From assembly GCA_964589775.1 (NCBI GenBank), contig CAZPUN010000021.1, forward strand, positions 146,629 through 178,628: 32,000 bases of DNA, read 5' to 3'. The notes under the pieces were generated by a model, which was not told the origin of the DNA, did not search any database, and worked only from the letters and a program-made list of their open reading frames with translations. This DNA is from an uncultured archaeon. Lineage in GTDB: Archaea; Asgardarchaeota; Thorarchaeia; Thorarchaeales; CAZPUN01. Position 1 is the first letter of the stretch. Every line of letters starts with the position of its first letter. The position numbers and the translations under genes were made by a program. Shown here in pieces: positions 1 through 29,809 of the stretch.

Positions 1-3
1 GGC

Positions 4-3000
4 TTGAGAATTATTGTCCGCGTTATATACACTTCTGTAGATTCTCCTGATTATCCTCAAGTTGTAACTCCATACGGTGTAAATGTTCAAATAAGTTTGA
101 CATACCATGATGAAGACCATAGCACAGTCATTTCAGGTGGTTCTGTGGTTTCTAATGCTTCATTAGATAGTCAAACTGATAATGGTGATGGTACTTATAC
201 TGTCGTTATTGATGTAAGTAGTTATGGAATTGGCACTCATGTATTCTACTTCAATGTGTCGAAATCCAATTATGATACTGCTACGATTGTAATCCGTATT
301 GTGATACGTCGCTATTTAACAACCCTTACTTATGACCAGATCAATGCAGTACCGTCTGGTGATGATCTTGTCATTACTCTTCATTACACAGTGTCTGACT
401 CTGAAAGTGGACATGATGGTGAATATATCATAGGAGCTACAATTATTACAAACTATTCACAATCTGATTATACCTTCTCATGGGATTCTACGAATCATGT
501 ATACATTCTTACAATCTATGGGTCTGCGATTTCATCCGTGGGTGTTCACTGGATAATTATTAATGCGACCACTGCTGGCTCTGCAAGTGATATTTATGCA
601 AATGCTACTACTAATGCAATTTCATTTACAGTTCGTGCAATCTCTACTACAACAACTTCGCCTGACTATCCTAGAGTTGTAGTTCCCTATGGCAATAATG
701 TTAATGTATCAGTAACTTACAAAGATCTAGACCATAATACAGTTATCTCCTCCGCATCTGTAAGTGCAAATGTTTCTATACAATGGACCGATAATGGTGA
801 CGGAACATATTCGATTAGAATTTTGTCGAACAGTTATAATCTTGGAACATATCATGTTAATATAACACTTACAAAAGCAAACCACGATTCATCATCTATT
901 GTGATCGATGTGCAGGTCCGAAGATATTACACGTCTCTAACTTATGATGCTATTTCCGAAACGCCGTATGATGAGAATGTTACCATTATTATTCATTATG
1001 TTGTTGATGATGCTGAAAGTGGACATGATGGTGAAGGTATTACGGGACTTGCATCGAATGTCTGGTGTAATTATACGTTCACAGCTTATGAATTGGGGAA
1101 CGGAGACTACAAGATCGTTATTTCAAAATCCGATCTAACCAGTCTTGGGCGTTATTATGTTACAATTGAAATAAACTCAACTGGTACTAGTCCGGACATC
1201 TATACGGCTCAAACATTAACTAGTGTGCCGTTTACAATTCGTAGAATTTACACATCTCTTACATACGAAGGTGTCGGCACAATACCGACTGGTGAAGATG
1301 TAGTTATTACAATTCATTATACCGTATTAGATTCAGCTAGTAGTCACAATGGTGAAGGCCTTACAGGTCTATCATCACACATATGGTGTAATTATAGTTC
1401 ATATACCGTAACTGAAGTTGGAAGTGGTACATATAGAATAACAATTTCAGCATCAGAAGTTTCAACAATTGGTACTTATGGTGTATTAATTGAAGCAAAT
1501 ACCACTGGAACTACAAATGATGTCTACCAAGCACAGCAATTAGATAGTGTAAGTTTCGAGATTAGAAGATTACATACGGTTCTTACATATGATCCCATTC
1601 AGAATACTCCATGGGGCGAAAATGTCACAATTCGTGTTAGATATAAAGTTGTAGATTCTTCTTCCTCACATGATGGCGAATATATTAACATTCCAACTTC
1701 CGGTATCACTACAAATGCTTCTGTTTATACGGTTATTCAAGTGAGTACTGGCATATTTGATATTGAAATAAACGCATCTGTATTTGATAGTATTGGCACT
1801 TATCATATATTTGTGCAAGCGACAAGTTCAGGTAGTGGAAATGATATTTATGACACTGCAACAATTGAATATGCTCTTGTAAATATTCGCCGTATTGAAA
1901 CAAGATTGATATATAGTAGTATTCCATCGATTCCATGGGATCAAGACGTATCGATTACAGTCCTATTCAAAGTTGATGATTCTGCAAGCGCTCATGATGG
2001 CGAAGGACTTGCCGGCTATGCAAGCTATTTTGCTTCTAACTTCACAATAAAATCCGTAACCGATAAAGTAAATGGTTATTACGAAGTTGTACTATCAAAG
2101 AGTGGATTTGCCAGTATTGGTTCGTACGTTGTTCTGATTCAAGTTGATGCAGAAAGTGCAAGTCCGAGTGTCTATGCAAATTCTGAAATCACTGTAAGTG
2201 TCTCAATCCGTGAGCGATATAGTCGTCTTGATTATGATCCTCCTGCAAGTACACCATACCTCGACAATGTTACATTTACAGTCTACTTTATTGATGATGA
2301 TAACGGAACTTATGTTGATGCTACTACGTGGAAATTAAATGATTCACTCGTTGAAGGTGTGGATTACTGGATAATTCGGCAGTCTCGTGGTGTATTTGTC
2401 GTCAAAATAAATACAACAAATCTTTCTTATGGTAGTTGTTATGTTGAATTAAACTTCACTCGAGCAAATTATGCGTGGGCATCACGTAATGTGTCTTTCA
2501 CAATTCGTCTAATTTATACAGATGCGATACCCTCCGTGTCCAGTCTATCAATTCCAATGGGCGAATCGATGTCATTCACAGTTGATTTCACGGATCGAGA
2601 CCATGACACGCCAATTTCCGGAGCTACCGTTATTGCTAATTGGACATATTTCCATTCTTCCGGTGAGGCAAACTATACCTACTCATATAATTCTGTTACC
2701 GGTAAATACACTATTACAATCTACACTGAAAGTGACGATCCACTCGGTACGTGGGAAGTTGTCTTTAACTTTACAAAGAGTAATTATGTAAATGGAACCT
2801 TCTCAATTAAAGTAACTATACGCACGCATTCCACATCATTTTCATTAGATACCGCTGCAATACCTACAAGCTATTCTTCAAGCTTCAAAGTTAATGTATC
2901 ATATTACGATGAAGATTTATCCGCAGGAATTGGAAATAGCTCCGGCTATGTAATGATGTATGCAAAGAACGCTTCTGGTAATATTTTATTCACCGTGGGA

Positions 3001-6000
3001 GCGAATTCAGATCTTGGTACCGGTCATTACACATTTGTAATTCCTGCAGATCAATGGCATGTAATTGGAAAGTTCTCAGTTGTATTGTATGTGAATTGGA
3101 CAGGCCCCACGCCTAAATATTATAATTTGACATTGAACATCACACTTACGGTTCGTGGCTCTGCAACATCTCTATCTATTTCAGAAGGTGCTCAACCTGC
3201 TCAATACTACGAAAACATATCCTTTGTGATTTACTATGAGGATAGTGATAATAATACTGGAATAACCAATTCATCAGCATATGGTGCAAATGTACATATC
3301 TATATTCAGTGCTTAACAGAATCAGTAGATGTATCATTAATCGATATAATAGAAATAAACCCGACGACAGACCCCGGTTTATACCGTATTCAATTTAATA
3401 CATCCATTCTGTCCAAGTTTGGCTACTTCGAATTTCGTGTCTGGGCGAATTGGACTCGTGGAGCAATGCCATTATATGAAAACCAGACTTTAGTTATTGG
3501 AATCCGTGTCACATCGCGGCAGACATCAGTATCTTACGTGCCGCCATATACAACTGCGTATGCCGAAATTGCTGCTTTCAATTTCTCATATCATGATGTC
3601 TTGAAGGACAATGCGTATATCGGTAATAGTTCTAGTATGCATATTCAGTTGAACGGAATAGATCCACAGTACTACAATATTACGTATTTCAGCTCTGACA
3701 AAGTCTTCAGAATTACAATTAATACAACTGTGTTCGGTGTGGGCGACTTTACAATGTATCTAAATATAACTTGGACTGGTGTTCCATATTATTACAACCA
3801 GACCTCGGTATCCGTACCTATTACTGTTCGATATCGTAATTCCTATCTTGACTCGCAAGCTACAGAACCGGTTCGATATTCTGATAATATTACGCTAGTA
3901 TTTACTTATACTGACCTCGATGATATGGTTGATATAAGTGGAAGCAATCTATCAATTTCATGTACCGGTCAGAACCTTGAAGGATATTATACAATTTACG
4001 ATAATGGTGATGGTACGTATAATGTCGTATTGGATACTGACGCATTTACTGAGCCCGGTACATATACAATTCATGCAGTCATGATTTATAATGGAAATAG
4101 ATATTTGTCTAATGCAACACGGGATGTACAAATTCGGGTGCTGTACCGATTCTCAGTTGCAACTGCAGATCCAAGTGGTCAACTTCCATATGGTTTAACA
4201 TTTACGATTTATCTGCATTTCTATGATGGTGATACAACTAATGCCATTACAAATAGTTCAGGACATGTTGGATTCTATATTACATCACCCGCAAATCTCA
4301 ATTATAGTATAGCTTGGTGGTATAGCGACATTTACAATTTAACAATCTATGACTCCGATTTGCCTCTTGGTAGTACTACTATGAATATCACATTCACATA
4401 TGATCATATTAGTCCGTTTTATAGTAGTGCAAATGCGGTCTTTACAATAACAATTCGTGCTAGAACATCCGACTTTGGCGTTTCCGACAGTCCATTACCA
4501 ACATCCTATCTTGAACTGCTTAACTTCTCAGTAACATATATAGATCTTGATACCTCAGAAGGAATTTCCGGAGCTACAATATCTCTTATCGGTATTGGGA
4601 CTTCCGAAACTTTGACTGAAAATGTAAACTATTGGATACATTATGCAGGTAATGGCGTTTATGAAATTTCAATCAATACTACTGCACTTGGTGCTCCCGG
4701 AGACTATAACGTAAATGTGACTGCAAGTTGGAGTGGAGCTCCTTATTACGCATCACGGCACGTGATTGTAGTCACAACGGTATCTCAAAGGGATAGCTCA
4801 CTTCTATTTGGAATAAGTCCTGTAGATACTCAATATCTTGATAATGTAACCTTTACAGTTCGATTCCTTGATGGTATTACTCATGAGCCCATCGATATTG
4901 CAACATCAAACTTTGAAATCCGAGTAGGACCAAGCCAGCGATTGCTAGCATCAAACGAATTTACTATTGTAAAATCTGATGGTTATTACACAATCCAAAT
5001 AAATACAACAGTTTTAAGCTCAAACCTTGTGTCCGACTATATGATAAATGTTACTGCAGTATGGCCTTCTGGAGATGCACCATATTACTTCTCTGATTGG
5101 ATCGCTACAACAATTTCAACAAAGGGCCGTAATTCCGAATTGAAATTTGAAAATGTTGCAGGAACGCCTATCGGAGATAATATTACAATTGTATTCCGTG
5201 TGACAGATGCCGAGCGTGGAACTGGTATCTCTAATGCAAACATAACTTTAATTTGTCTCAATAGAACTGTACAATATTGGCTTAGCGTTAATAATGGTAC
5301 GTATACAATTCTCGTAAATACTAGCGACTTTAATGAACTTGGAATATATCATTTCAAGATTAATATCACGTGGGATGAAGGTGTTCCTCCATTCTATTCA
5401 AGTTATTATAATAATCCAGTTCAGGGAACTGTGAAAGGAATTTCAACTAGGCTCTCAGCGGATGCTGCCAATCCCGGAAATGTACCATATTCAGATAATA
5501 CTACTATCACAGTACACTTCCTGGATATCGATCATAATCTCAGAGGTGTAACTGGTGCTACAATTTCAATCAATTATACGGGCCCATGGACGTTCTATTC
5601 ACTTGGTGGTGGAGATTACCTGATTCGTATTAATACTACTCAGATCACAACAAATGGTCTGACCAAGATTGTAATTACTGCAAGTCGGCAATTCTATGAA
5701 AATCAATCTGTTATGGTTGCATTCAATGTACGTGATATTTACACATTACTATCATGGGAAATCAAATCCGACCTTATTGCTGGTGATAATGTAACTGTAA
5801 TTCTAACGTACAAAGATCTCGACCATACTGGAGTGTATCTTGGCACCGCAGATTTAACATGCGATTGGACAAACACAACCGGAAAACCATACACGATTAT
5901 CAATTATGGAAATGGCACGTATAAGCTCACATTAGTGACTGCTAGTCTCGGAGTACAAGTCATTACGGTACACGTTATTGCAAAGCTCGCACACTATGCG

Positions 6001-8643
6001 GATGGAACTGCTGGATTTGATATTGCATTAAAGAACGTTCCAACTTCGCTTACACCTTACAAAGACGTACTTCGTGTAATTTGGGGAGAACAAGTACAAA
6101 TTGGTGTAATCTTCAATGATACTTATCATAATGTATTTGTTTCAAGCGCAAATGTGACATTTACGTGGAATGGAACACTAAGGCAAATGAGTGAAATATC
6201 CGCCGGTAATTATTCATACATTGTAGATACAACCGAATCACCATTTGGTACATATGTACTTTCAGTATCTGCACAATTAACAAATTATGAGACTAGTGTT
6301 GTAATAATCACATTAATCGTAGATCGTGTGCCTACAGAATTAATTGAAGTTGAAAATCATTATTCGATAACAGTTACAACTGTAGGTAGTTTTGACTTAA
6401 TATTCCTTTACAATGATACTCATAACGGCATTCCAATTGGAAGTGCGACTTTATCATATTCTTGGGAAAATGCACAAGGTACAATTCCATCTAATGGCAC
6501 TAATGGATTCTACGCTATTAGCTTGACTGCATTGGGTGTTCCTGTAGGTACTTATACATTGATAGTTACAGCAACTCGTGATAATTACGAATCTGCTAAC
6601 GCGTATATTGCAGTTACTGTAATTGTCACACCTACACAGATTATATTAGAAAACAACCCCCAAACTGTTAATTATCGTGATGTTGCTAACTTTACTGTAC
6701 AATTCCTCACGATGGATGGTATACCGATCACAGGTGCTCAAGTAAGCTATACTACTGTTGGTATCTCTGGAAACTTGACAGAAATAGGTAATGGTTGGTA
6801 CCAGTTATACTTTAATACGTCTGCGATTTCCGTCGGATCTTTCAGTGTAACCATAGTTGCAAAGGCTGAAGGATTCAAGACTTCATTTGATAATTATGTG
6901 CTTCAAATTACACCAATATCGACTACATTAAGTGGATTTGAAAGTTCTGTATCTCAGATCTATGGTGATGTTGTAATTGTAGACTTTAACTTCTCAGAAT
7001 CTTCTACAGGACGCGCAATTGTCGGTGCTATCGCAACGTATGAAGGTGCAGCAGGAAGCGGAAACTTAATCGAAATAGATAATGGTATCTATCGAATGAT
7101 ACTTAATACTACGGCAGTTACACCCGGTCAATACAAAGTTTCACTACAATTCCGCAAACTGAACTTCCAGACACAAAGAGTTACGATTGACCTGATTGTA
7201 AATCCAGTGCCCACTGAAGCTCGCGGTCCCACTGTCTTCGTCACACCAATTGGTGATTCTATGCAAATTCATATACAATTCTGGGATACGCACAATGATG
7301 TTGTAATTCGTGGAGCTACTATTGCAGGTTCTTGGAAGTATGGTCCAGTTAGCTTTGATGAGGATCCCAATGCTCCAGGAAATTACACATTTACCGTTGA
7401 AGGTAATATACCAATTGGAAGTTATGAGATGCGTCTATCTCTCTACAAAGAAAACTACTCATTAGTTGAAACCACTCTAACTATTGTTGTACGACCTATT
7501 CATACGCAAATTACTTCAGAAATGCCCGTACTAAACTTAATCTCATTACAATCAACATCCATTACAATTCGATATATGGATATAGACCATAATATTCCAA
7601 TTATAGGTGCTAACATCAGTGATTTCCAAGCTGTTGAATTTGTCAGTAATGAAATTGTCACAGATCAATTTACAGACTTGCACATTACCGAATTAGGAAA
7701 CGGATACTATAACATATCGTTCAAAGTTCCAGAAGTAACCCAAGATGTCATGACATATTCATTGAACATAACCTTCTATAAAGAGAACTATGATGCTGCT
7801 TCCATCGTATTCACAATAAACGTAAAAAGTCCTACATCAGACACTATGCGAACCATTATCATGACTGGTGGAATTATTGTTGCGGCATTTATTGTTCTAT
7901 TCGGAATAGTGTATGTTAAAGTTCTCAATGTTCCTAAGAAGATACGTGTCATTAACACATTGGTAAAATCACTATCTAAGAACAAGATTCCTAAAGCCCC
8001 ATCTGGAGTTCCACAACGAAATGAAATAATCTCAGGACTATGGAATGACCTGCTTGAACCATTTGAAATCCAAAAGGATGCATCTCAAATTCCGATGGAA
8101 AGCGTTCCAGTCGATGTTCCAGAACTTGGAGAACTATTGATCAAATTAGTTGAGCTCACAGGAATTACTCCAGAAGAACTTGAAGACTTCCAGGCTGAAA
8201 TTGCAAAGATGCGGCCAAGTGAACGTATCAACTTCGTAAAAGAAGTCATTCGCCAAGAAGCAGTACGAAAAGCAAAAGCGGCTGGTAAAGACTTGGATGA
8301 ATTCTTACAAGAATTAGAAGAACGTACCGCTCGTAAGATTTCTCGCGAACATGGTACTTTACCCTCAACTACAACAAAGCCAAAAGAAGAACCTGAAGAA
8401 ATTATCCCTGTTGAACTAGAAAAAGAACCCGAAGAGGCACCAGAAAAGATCGAATATATCCCTGAGCACGAAACAGAAAAGTTAACCGAATTTGAGCTCC
8501 AAAACTTACGAAAGGAACTAGAAGAGATGGGAATCGAGCCAGGTGAACTTGATATTATTATGACACAAGCCAGAAATCTATCTCGCGATCTTGTTGATGA
8601 ACTTATCAAGACTCTTAAGGAACGCATGAAAAAGGATGAGTAA
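4..8643 (+). CDS. Giant single-pass membrane surface protein with many tandem ~100-aa Ig-like beta-sandwich repeats; probably 5'-truncated by the window edge
   Basis: 2879-aa ORF open from the window edge with no signal peptide visible. Repeated motifs include Y-x-D-x-D-H, DNGDGTY and S-x-HDGE. It is T/S/N/Y-rich with many N-x-S/T sequons. One TM helix (IIMTGGIIVAAFIVLFGIVYV, ~7855-7917) precedes a ~240-aa charged cytoplasmic tail. Confidence 0.9.
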   Translation: MRIIVRVIYTSVDSPDYPQVVTPYGVNVQISLTYHDEDHSTVISGGSVVSNASLDSQTDNGDGTYTVVIDVSSYGIGTHVFYFNVSKSNYDTATIVIRIVIRRYLTTLTYDQINAVPSGDDLVITLHYTVSDSESGHDGEYIIGATIITNYSQSDYTFSWDSTNHVYILTIYGSAISSVGVHWIIINATTAGSASDIYANATTNAISFTVRAISTTTTSPDYPRVVVPYGNNVNVSVTYKDLDHNTVISSASVSANVSIQWTDNGDGTYSIRILSNSYNLGTYHVNITLTKANHDSSSIVIDVQVRRYYTSLTYDAISETPYDENVTIIIHYVVDDAESGHDGEGITGLASNVWCNYTFTAYELGNGDYKIVISKSDLTSLGRYYVTIEINSTGTSPDIYTAQTLTSVPFTIRRIYTSLTYEGVGTIPTGEDVVITIHYTVLDSASSHNGEGLTGLSSHIWCNYSSYTVTEVGSGTYRITISASEVSTIGTYGVLIEANTTGTTNDVYQAQQLDSVSFEIRRLHTVLTYDPIQNTPWGENVTIRVRYKVVDSSSSHDGEYINIPTSGITTNASVYTVIQVSTGIFDIEINASVFDSIGTYHIFVQATSSGSGNDIYDTATIEYALVNIRRIETRLIYSSIPSIPWDQDVSITVLFKVDDSASAHDGEGLAGYASYFASNFTIKSVTDKVNGYYEVVLSKSGFASIGSYVVLIQVDAESASPSVYANSEITVSVSIRERYSRLDYDPPASTPYLDNVTFTVYFIDDDNGTYVDATTWKLNDSLVEGVDYWIIRQSRGVFVVKINTTNLSYGSCYVELNFTRANYAWASRNVSFTIRLIYTDAIPSVSSLSIPMGESMSFTVDFTDRDHDTPISGATVIANWTYFHSSGEANYTYSYNSVTGKYTITIYTESDDPLGTWEVVFNFTKSNYVNGTFSIKVTIRTHSTSFSLDTAAIPTSYSSSFKVNVSYYDEDLSAGIGNSSGYVMMYAKNASGNILFTVGANSDLGTGHYTFVIPADQWHVIGKFSVVLYVNWTGPTPKYYNLTLNITLTVRGSATSLSISEGAQPAQYYENISFVIYYEDSDNNTGITNSSAYGANVHIYIQCLTESVDVSLIDIIEINPTTDPGLYRIQFNTSILSKFGYFEFRVWANWTRGAMPLYENQTLVIGIRVTSRQTSVSYVPPYTTAYAEIAAFNFSYHDVLKDNAYIGNSSSMHIQLNGIDPQYYNITYFSSDKVFRITINTTVFGVGDFTMYLNITWTGVPYYYNQTSVSVPITVRYRNSYLDSQATEPVRYSDNITLVFTYTDLDDMVDISGSNLSISCTGQNLEGYYTIYDNGDGTYNVVLDTDAFTEPGTYTIHAVMIYNGNRYLSNATRDVQIRVLYRFSVATADPSGQLPYGLTFTIYLHFYDGDTTNAITNSSGHVGFYITSPANLNYSIAWWYSDIYNLTIYDSDLPLGSTTMNITFTYDHISPFYSSANAVFTITIRARTSDFGVSDSPLPTSYLELLNFSVTYIDLDTSEGISGATISLIGIGTSETLTENVNYWIHYAGNGVYEISINTTALGAPGDYNVNVTASWSGAPYYASRHVIVVTTVSQRDSSLLFGISPVDTQYLDNVTFTVRFLDGITHEPIDIATSNFEIRVGPSQRLLASNEFTIVKSDGYYTIQINTTVLSSNLVSDYMINVTAVWPSGDAPYYFSDWIATTISTKGRNSELKFENVAGTPIGDNITIVFRVTDAERGTGISNANITLICLNRTVQYWLSVNNGTYTILVNTSDFNELGIYHFKINITWDEGVPPFYSSYYNNPVQGTVKGISTRLSADAANPGNVPYSDNTTITVHFLDIDHNLRGVTGATISINYTGPWTFYSLGGGDYLIRINTTQITTNGLTKIVITASRQFYENQSVMVAFNVRDIYTLLSWEIKSDLIAGDNVTVILTYKDLDHTGVYLGTADLTCDWTNTTGKPYTIINYGNGTYKLTLVTASLGVQVITVHVIAKLAHYADGTAGFDIALKNVPTSLTPYKDVLRVIWGEQVQIGVIFNDTYHNVFVSSANVTFTWNGTLRQMSEISAGNYSYIVDTTESPFGTYVLSVSAQLTNYETSVVIITLIVDRVPTELIEVENHYSITVTTVGSFDLIFLYNDTHNGIPIGSATLSYSWENAQGTIPSNGTNGFYAISLTALGVPVGTYTLIVTATRDNYESANAYIAVTVIVTPTQIILENNPQTVNYRDVANFTVQFLTMDGIPITGAQVSYTTVGISGNLTEIGNGWYQLYFNTSAISVGSFSVTIVAKAEGFKTSFDNYVLQITPISTTLSGFESSVSQIYGDVVIVDFNFSESSTGRAIVGAIATYEGAAGSGNLIEIDNGIYRMILNTTAVTPGQYKVSLQFRKLNFQTQRVTIDLIVNPVPTEARGPTVFVTPIGDSMQIHIQFWDTHNDVVIRGATIAGSWKYGPVSFDEDPNAPGNYTFTVEGNIPIGSYEMRLSLYKENYSLVETTLTIVVRPIHTQITSEMPVLNLISLQSTSITIRYMDIDHNIPIIGANISDFQAVEFVSNEIVTDQFTDLHITELGNGYYNISFKVPEVTQDVMTYSLNITFYKENYDAASIVFTINVKSPTSDTMRTIIMTGGIIVAAFIVLFGIVYVKVLNVPKKIRVINTLVKSLSKNKIPKAPSGVPQRNEIISGLWNDLLEPFEIQKDASQIPMESVPVDVPELGELLIKLVELTGITPEELEDFQAEIAKMRPSERINFVKEVIRQEAVRKAKAAGKDLDEFLQELEERTARKISREHGTLPSTTTKPKEEPEEIIPVELEKEPEEAPEKIEYIPEHETEKLTEFELQNLRKELEEMGIEPGELDIIMTQARNLSRDLVDELIKTLKERMKKDE

Positions 8644-10039: not shown

Positions 10040-10132
10040 TGGTCCCGCCCGCCGGATTTGAACCAGCAACACGCGGATTTCTGTCTTCAACGGACTACAG
10101 TCCGCTGCTCTACCAGATTGAGCTAGGGCGGG
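10040..10132 (-). tRNA. tRNA-Tyr(GTA) with a 16-nt intron at 37/38 (10079-10094) and encoded CCA
   Basis: Reverse complement reads CCCGCCC TAGCTCAATCTGGTAGAGC A GCGGA CT GTA G [TCCGTTGAAGACAGAA] A TCCGC ... GGTTCAAATCC GGC GGGCGGG A CCA. C1:G72 is the archaeal Tyr identity element. CTGT/ACAG forms the central BHB helix. Confidence 0.97.
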
Positions 10133-27890: not shown

Positions 27891-27973
27891 TTTCTCATTT
27901 TTTCATATTTGATGATGTGTGCCTTCGCATTTTTTATCTATTTAAATAGCATCCCTTAAATTTAGTTCTATTT

Positions 27974-28167
27974 CTAACATACTCCCCGCATTGAGATGCG
28001 AGGGTTCTGCGTATAGGCTATCCAGCGGTAGCCATTTCGCGCTTATACTCGCCGTGTTCCGACGAGGAATCTTTGATTATCGCTCCAGCTCTTTAGTATG
28101 TTTAGTTCCATTAAGATTCGGATAATCTTCACTGTTTTGAAAAACGATGCTTTCTCGCAGAGTGTTT
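27974..28167 (-). mobile_element. Non-autonomous IS200/IS605-family mini-element (PATE-like), copy A, 194 bp
   Basis: Minus strand: TTAC|AAACACTCTGCGAG-AAAG-hairpin left end. Right end is GAAC-CCTCGCAT/ATGCGGGG-AGTATG-TTAG. Homologous to 29239-29510; no ORF. Confidence 0.85.
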
Positions 28168-28236
28168 GTAAAAGTTCTCAGTTATTCTAAAAAAAGTTGA
28201 AAGTTCTGAAATTTTACTTTATTTAACTGGCACTAA

Positions 28237-28270
28237 GAATGTCACCTTTTTAGATGCGGGAGAGTGTCAA
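28237..28270 (+). mobile_element. Orphan, degenerate IS200/IS605 right end
   Basis: GAAT...GCGGGAGAGTG-TCAA, 34 nt, with the same guide-to-cleavage spacing as copy B; the hairpin is decayed. Confidence 0.55.
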
Positions 28271-29025
28271 ACTGCTTTTGCAATTATTATTACTTGTGGT
28301 GAATTTTCTTGGTCAAAAGGATTTTCCTTAAAGTCACCATAAGCTTTTTCGATTCGGAATCCGACGCGTTCGAGAATGTCTTTTAGTTCATCATAGTATA
28401 TTGGTGTTAGTCTCGATATGTGTGTTTTCATTTCCCAAAATCCACTATTGTTAACAAGTTTGATTAAGTGTATTTCCGTCTCGTCATTTGATGATATGAA
28501 GAAGCGAACGAAAACGATCTCCCCATTCTCAGTAGTACGCGTAATTAATGGTAGATATCTTACTCTTTCTTTGCGTACCCACTTGAAATTTCGTAGATGT
28601 ATTATGATAATTCCATCTTTCTTAATATTACTTCTTAGCTCTCTGAGACAATCTGGTATTTCGTCTTTGTGATGGAGTGCAAGACTGTCTCCAAGACAAA
28701 TGGCTGCATCATATTCGCCCTTAATACTTTGGCTGATATCCTGACATTTAGAAACTGAAAACATAATTGTCAAATTTTCATTTCGTGCGAGATTCTTGGC
28801 TTTTTCAATCATAAAAGGATCTTCATCAATTCCACGAACCATATACCCTTTCTTCGCAAGTTCTACAATGTGTCTTCCAGTTCCGCAAGATGTATCTAAG
28901 ACCGTCTGCACATTATATTCCTTGAATACTTTTTCCAAAAATGGAATCTCTCTTTCTAATCGGCTTTTCCACGGTATTAATTGATCATAATCTTCTGGAT
29001 GTACCTGTGATTGCATTTTGGGCAC
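28267..29025 (-). CDS. Class I SAM-dependent methyltransferase (glycine/sarcosine N-methyltransferase-like fold)
   Basis: VLDTSCGTGRH, GID...MI..A, YDAAICLGDSL, and C-terminal GF....YGDF...PF. GGAG RBS. Confidence 0.88.
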   Translation of the reverse strand: MPKMQSQVHPEDYDQLIPWKSRLEREIPFLEKVFKEYNVQTVLDTSCGTGRHIVELAKKGYMVRGIDEDPFMIEKAKNLARNENLTIMFSVSKCQDISQSIKGEYDAAICLGDSLALHHKDEIPDCLRELRSNIKKDGIIIIHLRNFKWVRKERVRYLPLITRTTENGEIVFVRFFISSNDETEIHLIKLVNNSGFWEMKTHISRLTPIYYDELKDILERVGFRIEKAYGDFKENPFDQENSPQVIIIAKAV

Positions 29026-29238
29026 TCCTACTCGCGCTTGTGTATCATGCCCCTTATTTTGTGTACTTAAAATAATTTTGCATTATGCATTGAAAAGTGA
29101 TTCTTTATAATTGCATAAAAAAGTTTTATTTCACAGCTGCTATGGTCATTTTTGTCGATGAAAGAACAATTTTATTTTACTTAGAAAATACTTTTATCTC
29201 ATGGCGTACATATTATGTAGTATGAATTTATTTTTTAC

Positions 29239-29510
29239 AAACACTCTGCGAGAAAGCATCGCTTTAGAAAGCGGTGATGCATCACATAAAATAAAAGTTC
29301 ATTGTGTTTGTATTTATAATAAATCAAATAATTTGAGAATTTAGAATAAGTCGCGACTTGAATGCATGCGGCGCATCCACGGATTGCTTCCAAAAAGCTG
29401 GAGCGATAACAAGCTCCCTCATTGGAGCACGACGAGTATATGCGCGAAATGGCTACTCTTGAGTAGCTTATACATAGAATCCTCGCATATCACTGCGGGG
29501 AGTATATCAT
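29239..29510 (+). mobile_element. Non-autonomous IS200/IS605-family mini-element, copy B, 272 bp, with a tnpB 3' relic and omegaRNA-like region
   Basis: TTAC (29235-38)|..AAAG (29253-56), hairpin CATCGCTTT-AG-AAAGCGGTG, and ATAAGTCGCGACTTGAATGCA encoding I-S-R-D-L-N-A. Right end is GAAT (29477-80), hairpin, GGGGAGTATA-TCAT. Confidence 0.87.
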
Positions 29511-29527
29511 AAGAGGTGATGCTTACT

Positions 29528-29809
29528 ATGATGTCTCAAATACCTATTAACCTTGATAAGATTAAAAAGGAGGACATAGATAAAGAAATTCTCCGGGTTG
29601 GGATCATTGCAGAATTAGATGCAATTAATCTATACGAGCAAATGGCTGCACTTGCGCAAAATGACTACATTAAGAAAACATTATTGGATATTGCACGCGA
29701 AGAGAAAGCCCATGTTGGCGAATTTCACGCCCTCCTATTAAGACTTGATGAAGAGCAAAAAGACGAACTTGAAGAAGGCAAGAAGGAAGTCGATGAACTT
29801 TTTGAATGA
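29528..29809 (+). CDS. Short ferritin-like protein (encapsulated-ferritin/Flp type)
   Basis: DKEILR.GIIAELDAINLYEQMA...LLDIAREEKAHVGEF (E..E/ExxH ferroxidase half-site). GAGGTGA RBS at 29513-29519. Confidence 0.9.
   Translation: MMSQIPINLDKIKKEDIDKEILRVGIIAELDAINLYEQMAALAQNDYIKKTLLDIAREEKAHVGEFHALLLRLDEEQKDELEEGKKEVDELFE

Follow-up and report, generated by a model that had tools for sequence, protein, structure and literature searches.

Two gene-less derivatives of an IS605 element, copies A and B, lie in the 32,000-nt stretch of a Thorarchaeales contig analysed here (the window, to which plain coordinates refer). Copy B (29239–29510, + strand, 272 nt) belongs to a long subfamily, and the target tetranucleotide TTAC (29235–29238, +) adjoins its left end on the outer side, as it does the left ends of the parent elements described below. 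The left-end subterminal hairpin (29257–29276, +), a putative TnpA site, is preceded by the guide tetranucleotide AAAG, an arrangement that we take to be of the IS608 type. A degraded BRE/TATA-like sequence (29293–29304, +), probably a promoter inherited from that of the parent tnpA, aligns with the parental TATA box, which lies 29–30 nt 5′ of the tnpA ATG. Further 3′, a remnant of the tnpB 3′ end (29329–29397, +) comprises the region of the last zinc-finger cysteine and the RuvC-III motif RDLN (29352–29363); an insert of 5 or 9 nt interrupts the remnant, which is out of frame 3′ of it. An earlier note on this DNA had assigned the ISRDLNA codons, starting at 29346, to RuvC-III of TnpB, and the tails of the parent TnpBs bear this out, showing the same motif before the scaffold. 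In the long-subfamily consensus, this remnant (29331–29395) folds into an additional hairpin of two parts, which the insert following the RDLN codons improves and which is decayed in copy B (z = +0.84).

The omegaRNA scaffold of copy B (29398–29510, +; covariance-model score 108.8 bits) contains hairpin 1 (29400–29417, +), hairpin 2 (29418–29436, +), a nested stem with a GGCTAC arm (29451–29467, +) and the right-end hairpin (29481–29500, +). It keeps 27 of 30 nested pairs (fold against shuffles, z = −2.4) and differs by 17% from the family consensus, the pseudoknot being half broken (two of four pairs left) and the right end reading TCAT where the family has TCAG. The loop of hairpin 1 (29405–29412) has a form longer by 5 nt that occurs in the long and short subfamilies of this genome and in minis of Thermoplasmatota, and in none of the tnpB-bearing parents that were read, where it would frameshift the TnpB tail. 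Minis may thus have recombined with one another or passed between hosts. The predicted guide of B (29511–29526, +) falls in the host-encoded 5′ leader, with a Shine–Dalgarno-like GAGGTGA, of a ferritin-like (rubrerythrin/EncFtn-like) gene (29528–29809, +) that is flanking DNA outside the element. Copy B ends 17 nt from the start codon of this gene, on the same strand and immediately 5′ of the Shine–Dalgarno-like site, and the insertion there (29511–29528) may lengthen or drive the mRNA.

Copy A (27974–28167, - strand) is preceded by TTAC (28168–28171, -) and belongs to a short subfamily of normally 212–220 nt; its 194 nt lack a segment of about 24 nt that contains the TATA box and one arm (3′) of the outer stem at the left end. 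At the subfamily's deletion junction (28091–28111, -), assigned by alignment with the parent L145, a TAAA microhomology connects the first tnpA codons with the NIL codons of tnpB. The scaffold (27974–28088, -; 130.4 bits) likewise keeps 27 of 30 nested pairs (z = −1.7 against shuffles), its pseudoknot has all four pairs (compensated), its right end is TTAG instead of TCAG and its distance from the family consensus is 10%, both A and B being among the best-preserved copies. The predicted guide (27958–27973, -) is AT-rich host intergenic DNA. Copies A and B are inverted, with arms at 27972–28073 and 29411–29512 that are 79% complementary, plus a left-end pair; the inverted pair of the earlier note is thus present, but its members are merely two of about 42–44 copies. 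Between them lies a host gene for a SAM methyltransferase (28267–29025, -), a bystander; a composite transposon carrying it was ruled out, since A and B come from different subfamilies and are about 81% alike. Elsewhere, the window holds a repetitive, 5′-open ORF of more than 2880 aa, probably for a surface protein (1–8643, +), and a 90-nt tRNA gene with an enlarged anticodon region, probably intron-containing (10043–10132, -), and the host genome carries an Nre gene, which marks it as archaeal, and a Rab-like GTPase gene, which suggests an Asgard archaeon.

A family of internally deleted IS605 derivatives

Iterated HMM searches of the genome gave 44 scaffold matches, two of which are tandem duplicates, so that the family comprises about 42 dispersed loci; a covariance model of the scaffold found 40 copies. 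All are gene-less and, at 190–275 nt, too short for a transposase. The long subfamily has 29 copies of about 250–275 nt, and at least two junction types are shorter than the short subfamily (C64:25947 and C4:12979). TTAC, which is also the target of IS608, stands before A, before B and 5′ of 21 of the 30 alignable left ends, in agreement with the TTAC-type TAM predicted earlier, and the flanks of the copies are unrelated. Both ends of the minis align with those of tnpA–tnpB IS605 parents and have subterminal palindromes but no terminal inverted repeats. Ends, target site, size and dispersion fit PATEs, the gene-less IS200/IS605 derivatives, and A and B belong to this kind.

The deletions spared the left end, the promoter, the scaffold and the right end. 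A right-end-only profile run on the genome gave no credible case of a right end lacking the scaffold among the approximately 42 copies; left ends on their own were seen as about three fragments. In this genome at least four distinct junctions, plus those of sister minis elsewhere, all end at or upstream of hairpin 1. The region is therefore not lost at random, and the earlier observation that both deletions spared about 115 nt stands as far as non-random retention is concerned; the deletions themselves, however, are founder events of amplified subfamilies rather than private to A and B. The tnpB tail does adjoin the scaffold, as had been proposed, but the functional scaffold starts about 50 nt further 3′ than the RDLN codons, with hairpin 1 at 29400, and it is here that the shortest minis start.

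None of the copies lies within a long ORF, as would be expected from purifying selection alone, and they show no orientation bias (among the 42 copies, upstream gene on the same strand in 20 and on the opposite strand in 19). The element had no match in Rfam, in 40, 86 and 150 related genomes (relatives, class and phylum, respectively; DNA and covariance-model searches) or, with two patterns, in viral contigs. Among the matches listed for the contigs of two sequencing runs, neither an empty site for A or B nor a loose end leading into tnpB was seen, though other minis were; the genome set searched for empty sites holds no close relative.

Several copies are unusual in themselves. The right-end hairpin of G000:C21:44306-44488 (L062) is tandemly duplicated around a 36-nt spacer, and most of the scaffold of G000:C64:26041-26222 (L090) is tandemly duplicated, with a possible third degenerate hairpin, both having a repeat–spacer–repeat look. 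Scaffolds on a different-looking left end (L168, L179, L181 and G000:C61:22800-22981) suggest chimeras between IS605 families or nested insertions. A long-type copy from another organism of metagenome Ga0256914 (L093:2228-2500) overlaps the 3′ end of a 778-aa ORF, with a Cas2-like ORF near it. An unrelated GC-rich intergenic element with a long hairpin lies at G000:C27:31558-31663 (L094:520-625).

Parent elements and sister minis in vent Thermoplasmatota

Scans of a genome collection gave no match with a first pattern, and a right-end pattern retrieved the parent family in MAGs of vent Thermoplasmatota/DHVE2, parents being present in metagenomes as well. Several matches are full IS605 elements with TTAC, left end, tnpA (Y1_Tnp, 139 aa), tnpB (402–407 aa) and the right end TCAG. 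The parent TnpB (407 aa) has HTH_OrfB, OrfB_IS605 and TNB domains and all of the RuvC residues D, E and D, and about 40 such proteins form a clear clade. Because the parents end in TCAG, right after which their copies diverge, guides would start at 29511 in B and 27973 in A, as predicted in the earlier note. The unnamed element at L131 (JAVRLK010000029.1) and L145 (GCA_053994715.1) has the same left end, promoter, TnpB tail, scaffold and right end as the minis; it differs from them in carrying tnpA (139 aa) and tnpB (402–407 aa) and in stems changed by compensation. The tails and stems of P0009 and P0007 are nearest to the consensus of this genome.

Intact parent TnpBs carry DRDLNASINILKRGLE immediately 5′ of the scaffold, their DNA aligns with the remnant in copy B, and the parental tail runs from RDLN over NIL through the entire scaffold of about 114 nt. 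In the long subfamily, tnpA codons 3–5 appear joined to the region of the last zinc-finger cysteine. Two members of the TnpB clade have another small gene in the place of tnpA 5′ of tnpB, an HTH_17/MerR gene at L148:703-2083 and an unannotated 46-aa gene at L143:444-1773.

The MAGs G211 and G212, with 34 and 14 scaffold matches, contain several full-length TnpB ORFs that are 91–92% identical to that of L131, and, among 24 scaffold matches read, about 15 minis without tnpB; ten gene-less minis with a complete left end measure 191–197 nt. Loci recorded in these two MAGs are L153, L157, L159, L162, L167, L172, L173, L175–L177 and L180, beside L160, L163, L166 and L170, and two further vent Thermoplasmatota MAGs, G226 and G227, have intact TnpB together with many young promoter-plus-omegaRNA minis of about 196 nt. 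The young Thermoplasmatota minis fall into several subfamilies, whose stems differ by compensatory changes. Of 16 gene-less sister copies, 14 have a TATA-like box 30 nt 5′ of hairpin 1 and one has it at 28 nt; the 30-nt spacing equals that between TATA box and tnpA ATG in the parents. Transcription of the sister minis would thus start at the first base of the scaffold, in keeping with selection for expression of an omegaRNA that TnpB uses in trans.

Structure of the scaffold

Nested pairing is 95% in parent-type loci, 97% in young gene-less sisters and about 77% in this genome, compared with 34–54% in slid controls, counts that lean towards the structure because the alignments were fitted to it and their rows are related. 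Sister minis have changes on both sides (compensatory) in all five helices, and the pseudoknot, in which the GACA loop of hairpin 2 pairs with the terminal UGUC before the guide, occurs with GGCA/UGCC variants. In the parents the TnpB tail extends from RDLN through the scaffold, whose helices covary; the scaffold is therefore a TnpB omegaRNA, overlapping the tnpB 3′ end, ending at the right end and taking its guide from the flank. This overlap, the covariation and the lack of scaffold-less right ends confirm what had first been suspected, namely that an omegaRNA scaffold was retained after loss of tnpB.

The covarying stems and the pseudoknot are clear for the family and weak in the copies of this genome, for which RNAalifold gives almost no consensus fold. 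The earlier description of the individual helices holds in part. Both copies keep the helices with different sequences at 27 of 30 pairs, but the second helix of B has an A·C mismatch (6/7 pairs) that reflects decay and is uncompensated. The enclosing GTATA/TATAC helix is conserved but, being invariant across copies, lies beyond what covariation can address, and it is the enclosing helix TGCG/CGCA (GGGG/CCCT in sister elements) that has covariation support.

Searches for tnpA, tnpB and guide targets

Pfam searches for PF07282, PF01385, PF12323 and PF01797, with positive controls that worked for these families, found neither tnpB nor tnpA in the genome, a MAG from a hydrothermal-vent metagenome with 64 contigs and 96.75% completeness, in which a young multicopy IS could easily be missing, as these often stay unassembled. 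The parent proteins matched this genome only in the minis' own tails, and clade HMMs run on six frames with stops read through revealed no tnpB or dead homologue beyond the minis. Two faint PF01385 matches (E about 0.01) proved to lie in ORFs of 628 and 678 aa lacking TnpB motifs. The IscB RRXRR search matched nothing in the genome, nor in its positive control. Among relatives, 34 of 40 genomes carry other TnpBs, the best being just 31–36% identical to the parent TnpB. None of the contigs terminates at an end of the element, which speaks against collapsed young copies, since these would tend to cause such breaks.

Matches to TTAC plus guide in the genome were no better than those of random 20-mers (seed 7.9 vs 7.4 nt; B 7, A 8), so the search for self-targets proposed in the earlier note yielded no excess. 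The guides are simply flanking host DNA, that of B being the leader of the ferritin-like gene. As for a TldR-type system, the assembly yielded no gene of the TnpB fold, RuvC-dead or otherwise, and the guides have no TAM-flanked targets beyond chance. The cognate effector that a standalone, trans-acting omegaRNA would need was found in G211 and G212 and not in this assembly.

Divergence and decay of the copies

Nearest neighbours among the copies are 62–88% identical and no two are more than 88% alike, which argues against recent movement; the copy tree is star-like, with a median terminal branch of 0.25. In the long subfamily, divergence at GC/AT sites was 0.33/0.19 for the scaffold, through which the copies had been found, 0.28/0.18 for the tnpB remnant and 0.36/0.21 for the promoter spacer. 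The scaffold decays no slower than the tnpB remnant and at close to the pace of the promoter spacer. At G–C stem pairs, changes that keep the stem as G·U (C>T, 81) and those that break it as A·C (G>A, 72) were about equally frequent (p = 0.52), and pairing in this genome (76.6%) was near that expected under independent decay scaled by copy age (75.1 ± 1.2%). The copies thus decay in a largely neutral-looking manner.

Double GC>AT changes in paired columns, however, occurred at an observed/expected ratio of 1.60, compared with 1.11 ± 0.13 for re-paired columns, and of 1.47 after removal of one subclade. This excess indicates that some structural constraint or palindrome-templated repair acted, and it counts against the explanation we prefer below. 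Given the strand symmetry of the single changes, we favour compensatory changes that became fixed during the active phase of the family, or repair templated by hairpins. From the excess of compensated pairs and the incomplete assembly it could also be argued that selection on structure persists in some orphan omegaRNAs among the best-preserved, which would load a TnpB missing from the assembly, or a host RNA-binding protein not recognised as such, and form a dispersed guide repertoire; we consider this quite unlikely. At a locus shared with a near-identical strain (L094:1741-1850 vs G000:C27:30333-30442; 2998/3004 positions identical), four of the six differences are confined to a 22-nt part of the scaffold. 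The cluster, at a single locus and perhaps an artefact of assembly, suggests rapid change rather than conservation; its possible causes are gene conversion between copies, mutagenesis at hairpins and mis-assembly.

Discussion

We interpret copies A and B, with a probability of about 80%, as relics of an omegaRNA-bearing PATE family that spread with TnpA and TnpB supplied in trans and is now orphaned and decaying. Internal deletions fused the first tnpA codons to the tnpB tail, with left end, promoter, scaffold and right end staying in place, and the family reached about 42 TTAC sites and then diverged. The following course of events may account for this. While an autonomous tnpA–tnpB element was present, TnpA would have mobilised the minis in trans, and the promoter inherited by each mini would have driven an RNA of scaffold plus flank-derived guide. 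Loaded in trans with this RNA, TnpB may have cut the empty donor site (TTAC plus right flank), the filled copy templating the repair, and such cutting and repair would have favoured derivatives that kept the scaffold. The minis would have spread in this way, and with the later loss of the autonomous element from the lineage selection may have lapsed, leaving immobile copies that decay by C>T and G>A drift. We infer trans use by TnpB as the best explanation of the spread of the family.

The earlier note had gone further, proposing a TnpB or TldR-like protein, encoded elsewhere, into which the RNA is still loaded. Given the lack of any such gene in the assembly, the neutral-looking decay and the absence of self-targets, this proposal is not supported for this genome, and the note itself had named the absence of a cognate tnpB as evidence against it. 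In its strongest form, with the best-preserved copies as working guide cassettes for a TnpB or a dead TldR-like protein on an unassembled contig, plasmid or virus, it is unlikely: six kinds of search gave no homologue, no copies are more than 88% alike, hence no recent movement, A lacks the TATA box, the pseudoknot of B is half broken, TCAG is altered in both, G·U pairs are not preferred and the guides have no targets. These points weigh against the 27 of 30 pairs held by A and B, the excess of compensated pairs in the family, the coexistence of TnpB with intact minis in the Thermoplasmatota MAGs G211 and G212 and the incompleteness of the assembly, all of which speak for working cassettes.

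Retention of the scaffold for reasons other than TnpB, either because TnpA needs or prefers a longer structured single-stranded right end or because hairpins favour breakpoints, would agree with the strand symmetry of the double-change excess (G·U = A·C), as expected of a process on DNA hairpins, and with the microhomology at the short-subfamily junction. Terminal-only PATEs of 52 bp appear mobile in Haloquadratum (PMC3119063), however, and the young sister minis keep RNA-level features, the TATA box 30 nt 5′ of hairpin 1 and the pseudoknot, so that we regard this as improbable too. Also very unlikely is exaptation by the host, independent of TnpB, in which B would promote transcription of the ferritin-like gene or form a structured 5′ leader of its mRNA and other copies would serve as terminators or small RNAs. 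The unbiased orientation over 42 copies and the degraded TATA-like box of B argue against it, as does the consideration that purifying selection alone predicts intergenic positions, although B does lie on the strand of the gene, 17 nt from its start codon and just before the Shine–Dalgarno-like site, and all copies are outside long ORFs.

If the copies are orphaned relics, one IS605 family is seen in three states: as autonomous tnpA–tnpB elements, as young minis beside TnpB in vent Thermoplasmatota and as orphaned, decaying minis in this genome. This pattern fits the idea that the scaffold stays intact through TnpB supplied in trans. From the minis, a natural minimal omegaRNA (about 114 nt) can be defined and a TTAC TAM predicted for an archaeal TnpB of about 405 aa, and the Thermoplasmatota minis beside intact TnpB offer a ready test system for the role of standalone omegaRNAs. 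A and B are a well-documented fossil of a known kind, whose value is comparative.

Meers et al. (10.1101/2023.03.14.532601) state that PATEs frequently carry omegaRNAs dependent on TnpB supplied in trans, and trans-dependent omegaRNA PATEs and standalone omegaRNAs are already described, so the idea is not new. Like the omegaRNA PATEs of Geobacillus stearothermophilus (10.1101/2023.03.14.532601), the minis are gene-less, have IS605 ends, keep the omegaRNA and would depend on TnpA and TnpB in trans, whereas the copies studied here are old, their host is an archaeon and tnpA and tnpB were not found in its assembly. [quoted passage not shown] The PATEs of Haloquadratum walsbyi, such as HqIRS71 (Dyall-Smith et al. 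2011, PMC3119063), belong to another IS605 subfamily and were described in 2011, when the omegaRNA was not yet known, and yet share with the minis an archaeal host, subterminal palindromes, the lack of terminal inverted repeats, a fixed target oligonucleotide, divergent copies and, in some, a disrupted remnant of the tnpB C-terminus. The ISDra2 omegaRNA has a scaffold of 116 nt, with a pseudoknot between a hairpin loop and the last pre-guide bases (PMC10097598). The pseudoknot loop of the minis lies at about −80 instead of −105 and their right end is TCAG, the likeness drawn here being one of structural layout; in this layout, the minis resemble ISDra2 in having a scaffold of 113–115 nt that overlaps the tnpB 3′ end and forms the same kind of pseudoknot.
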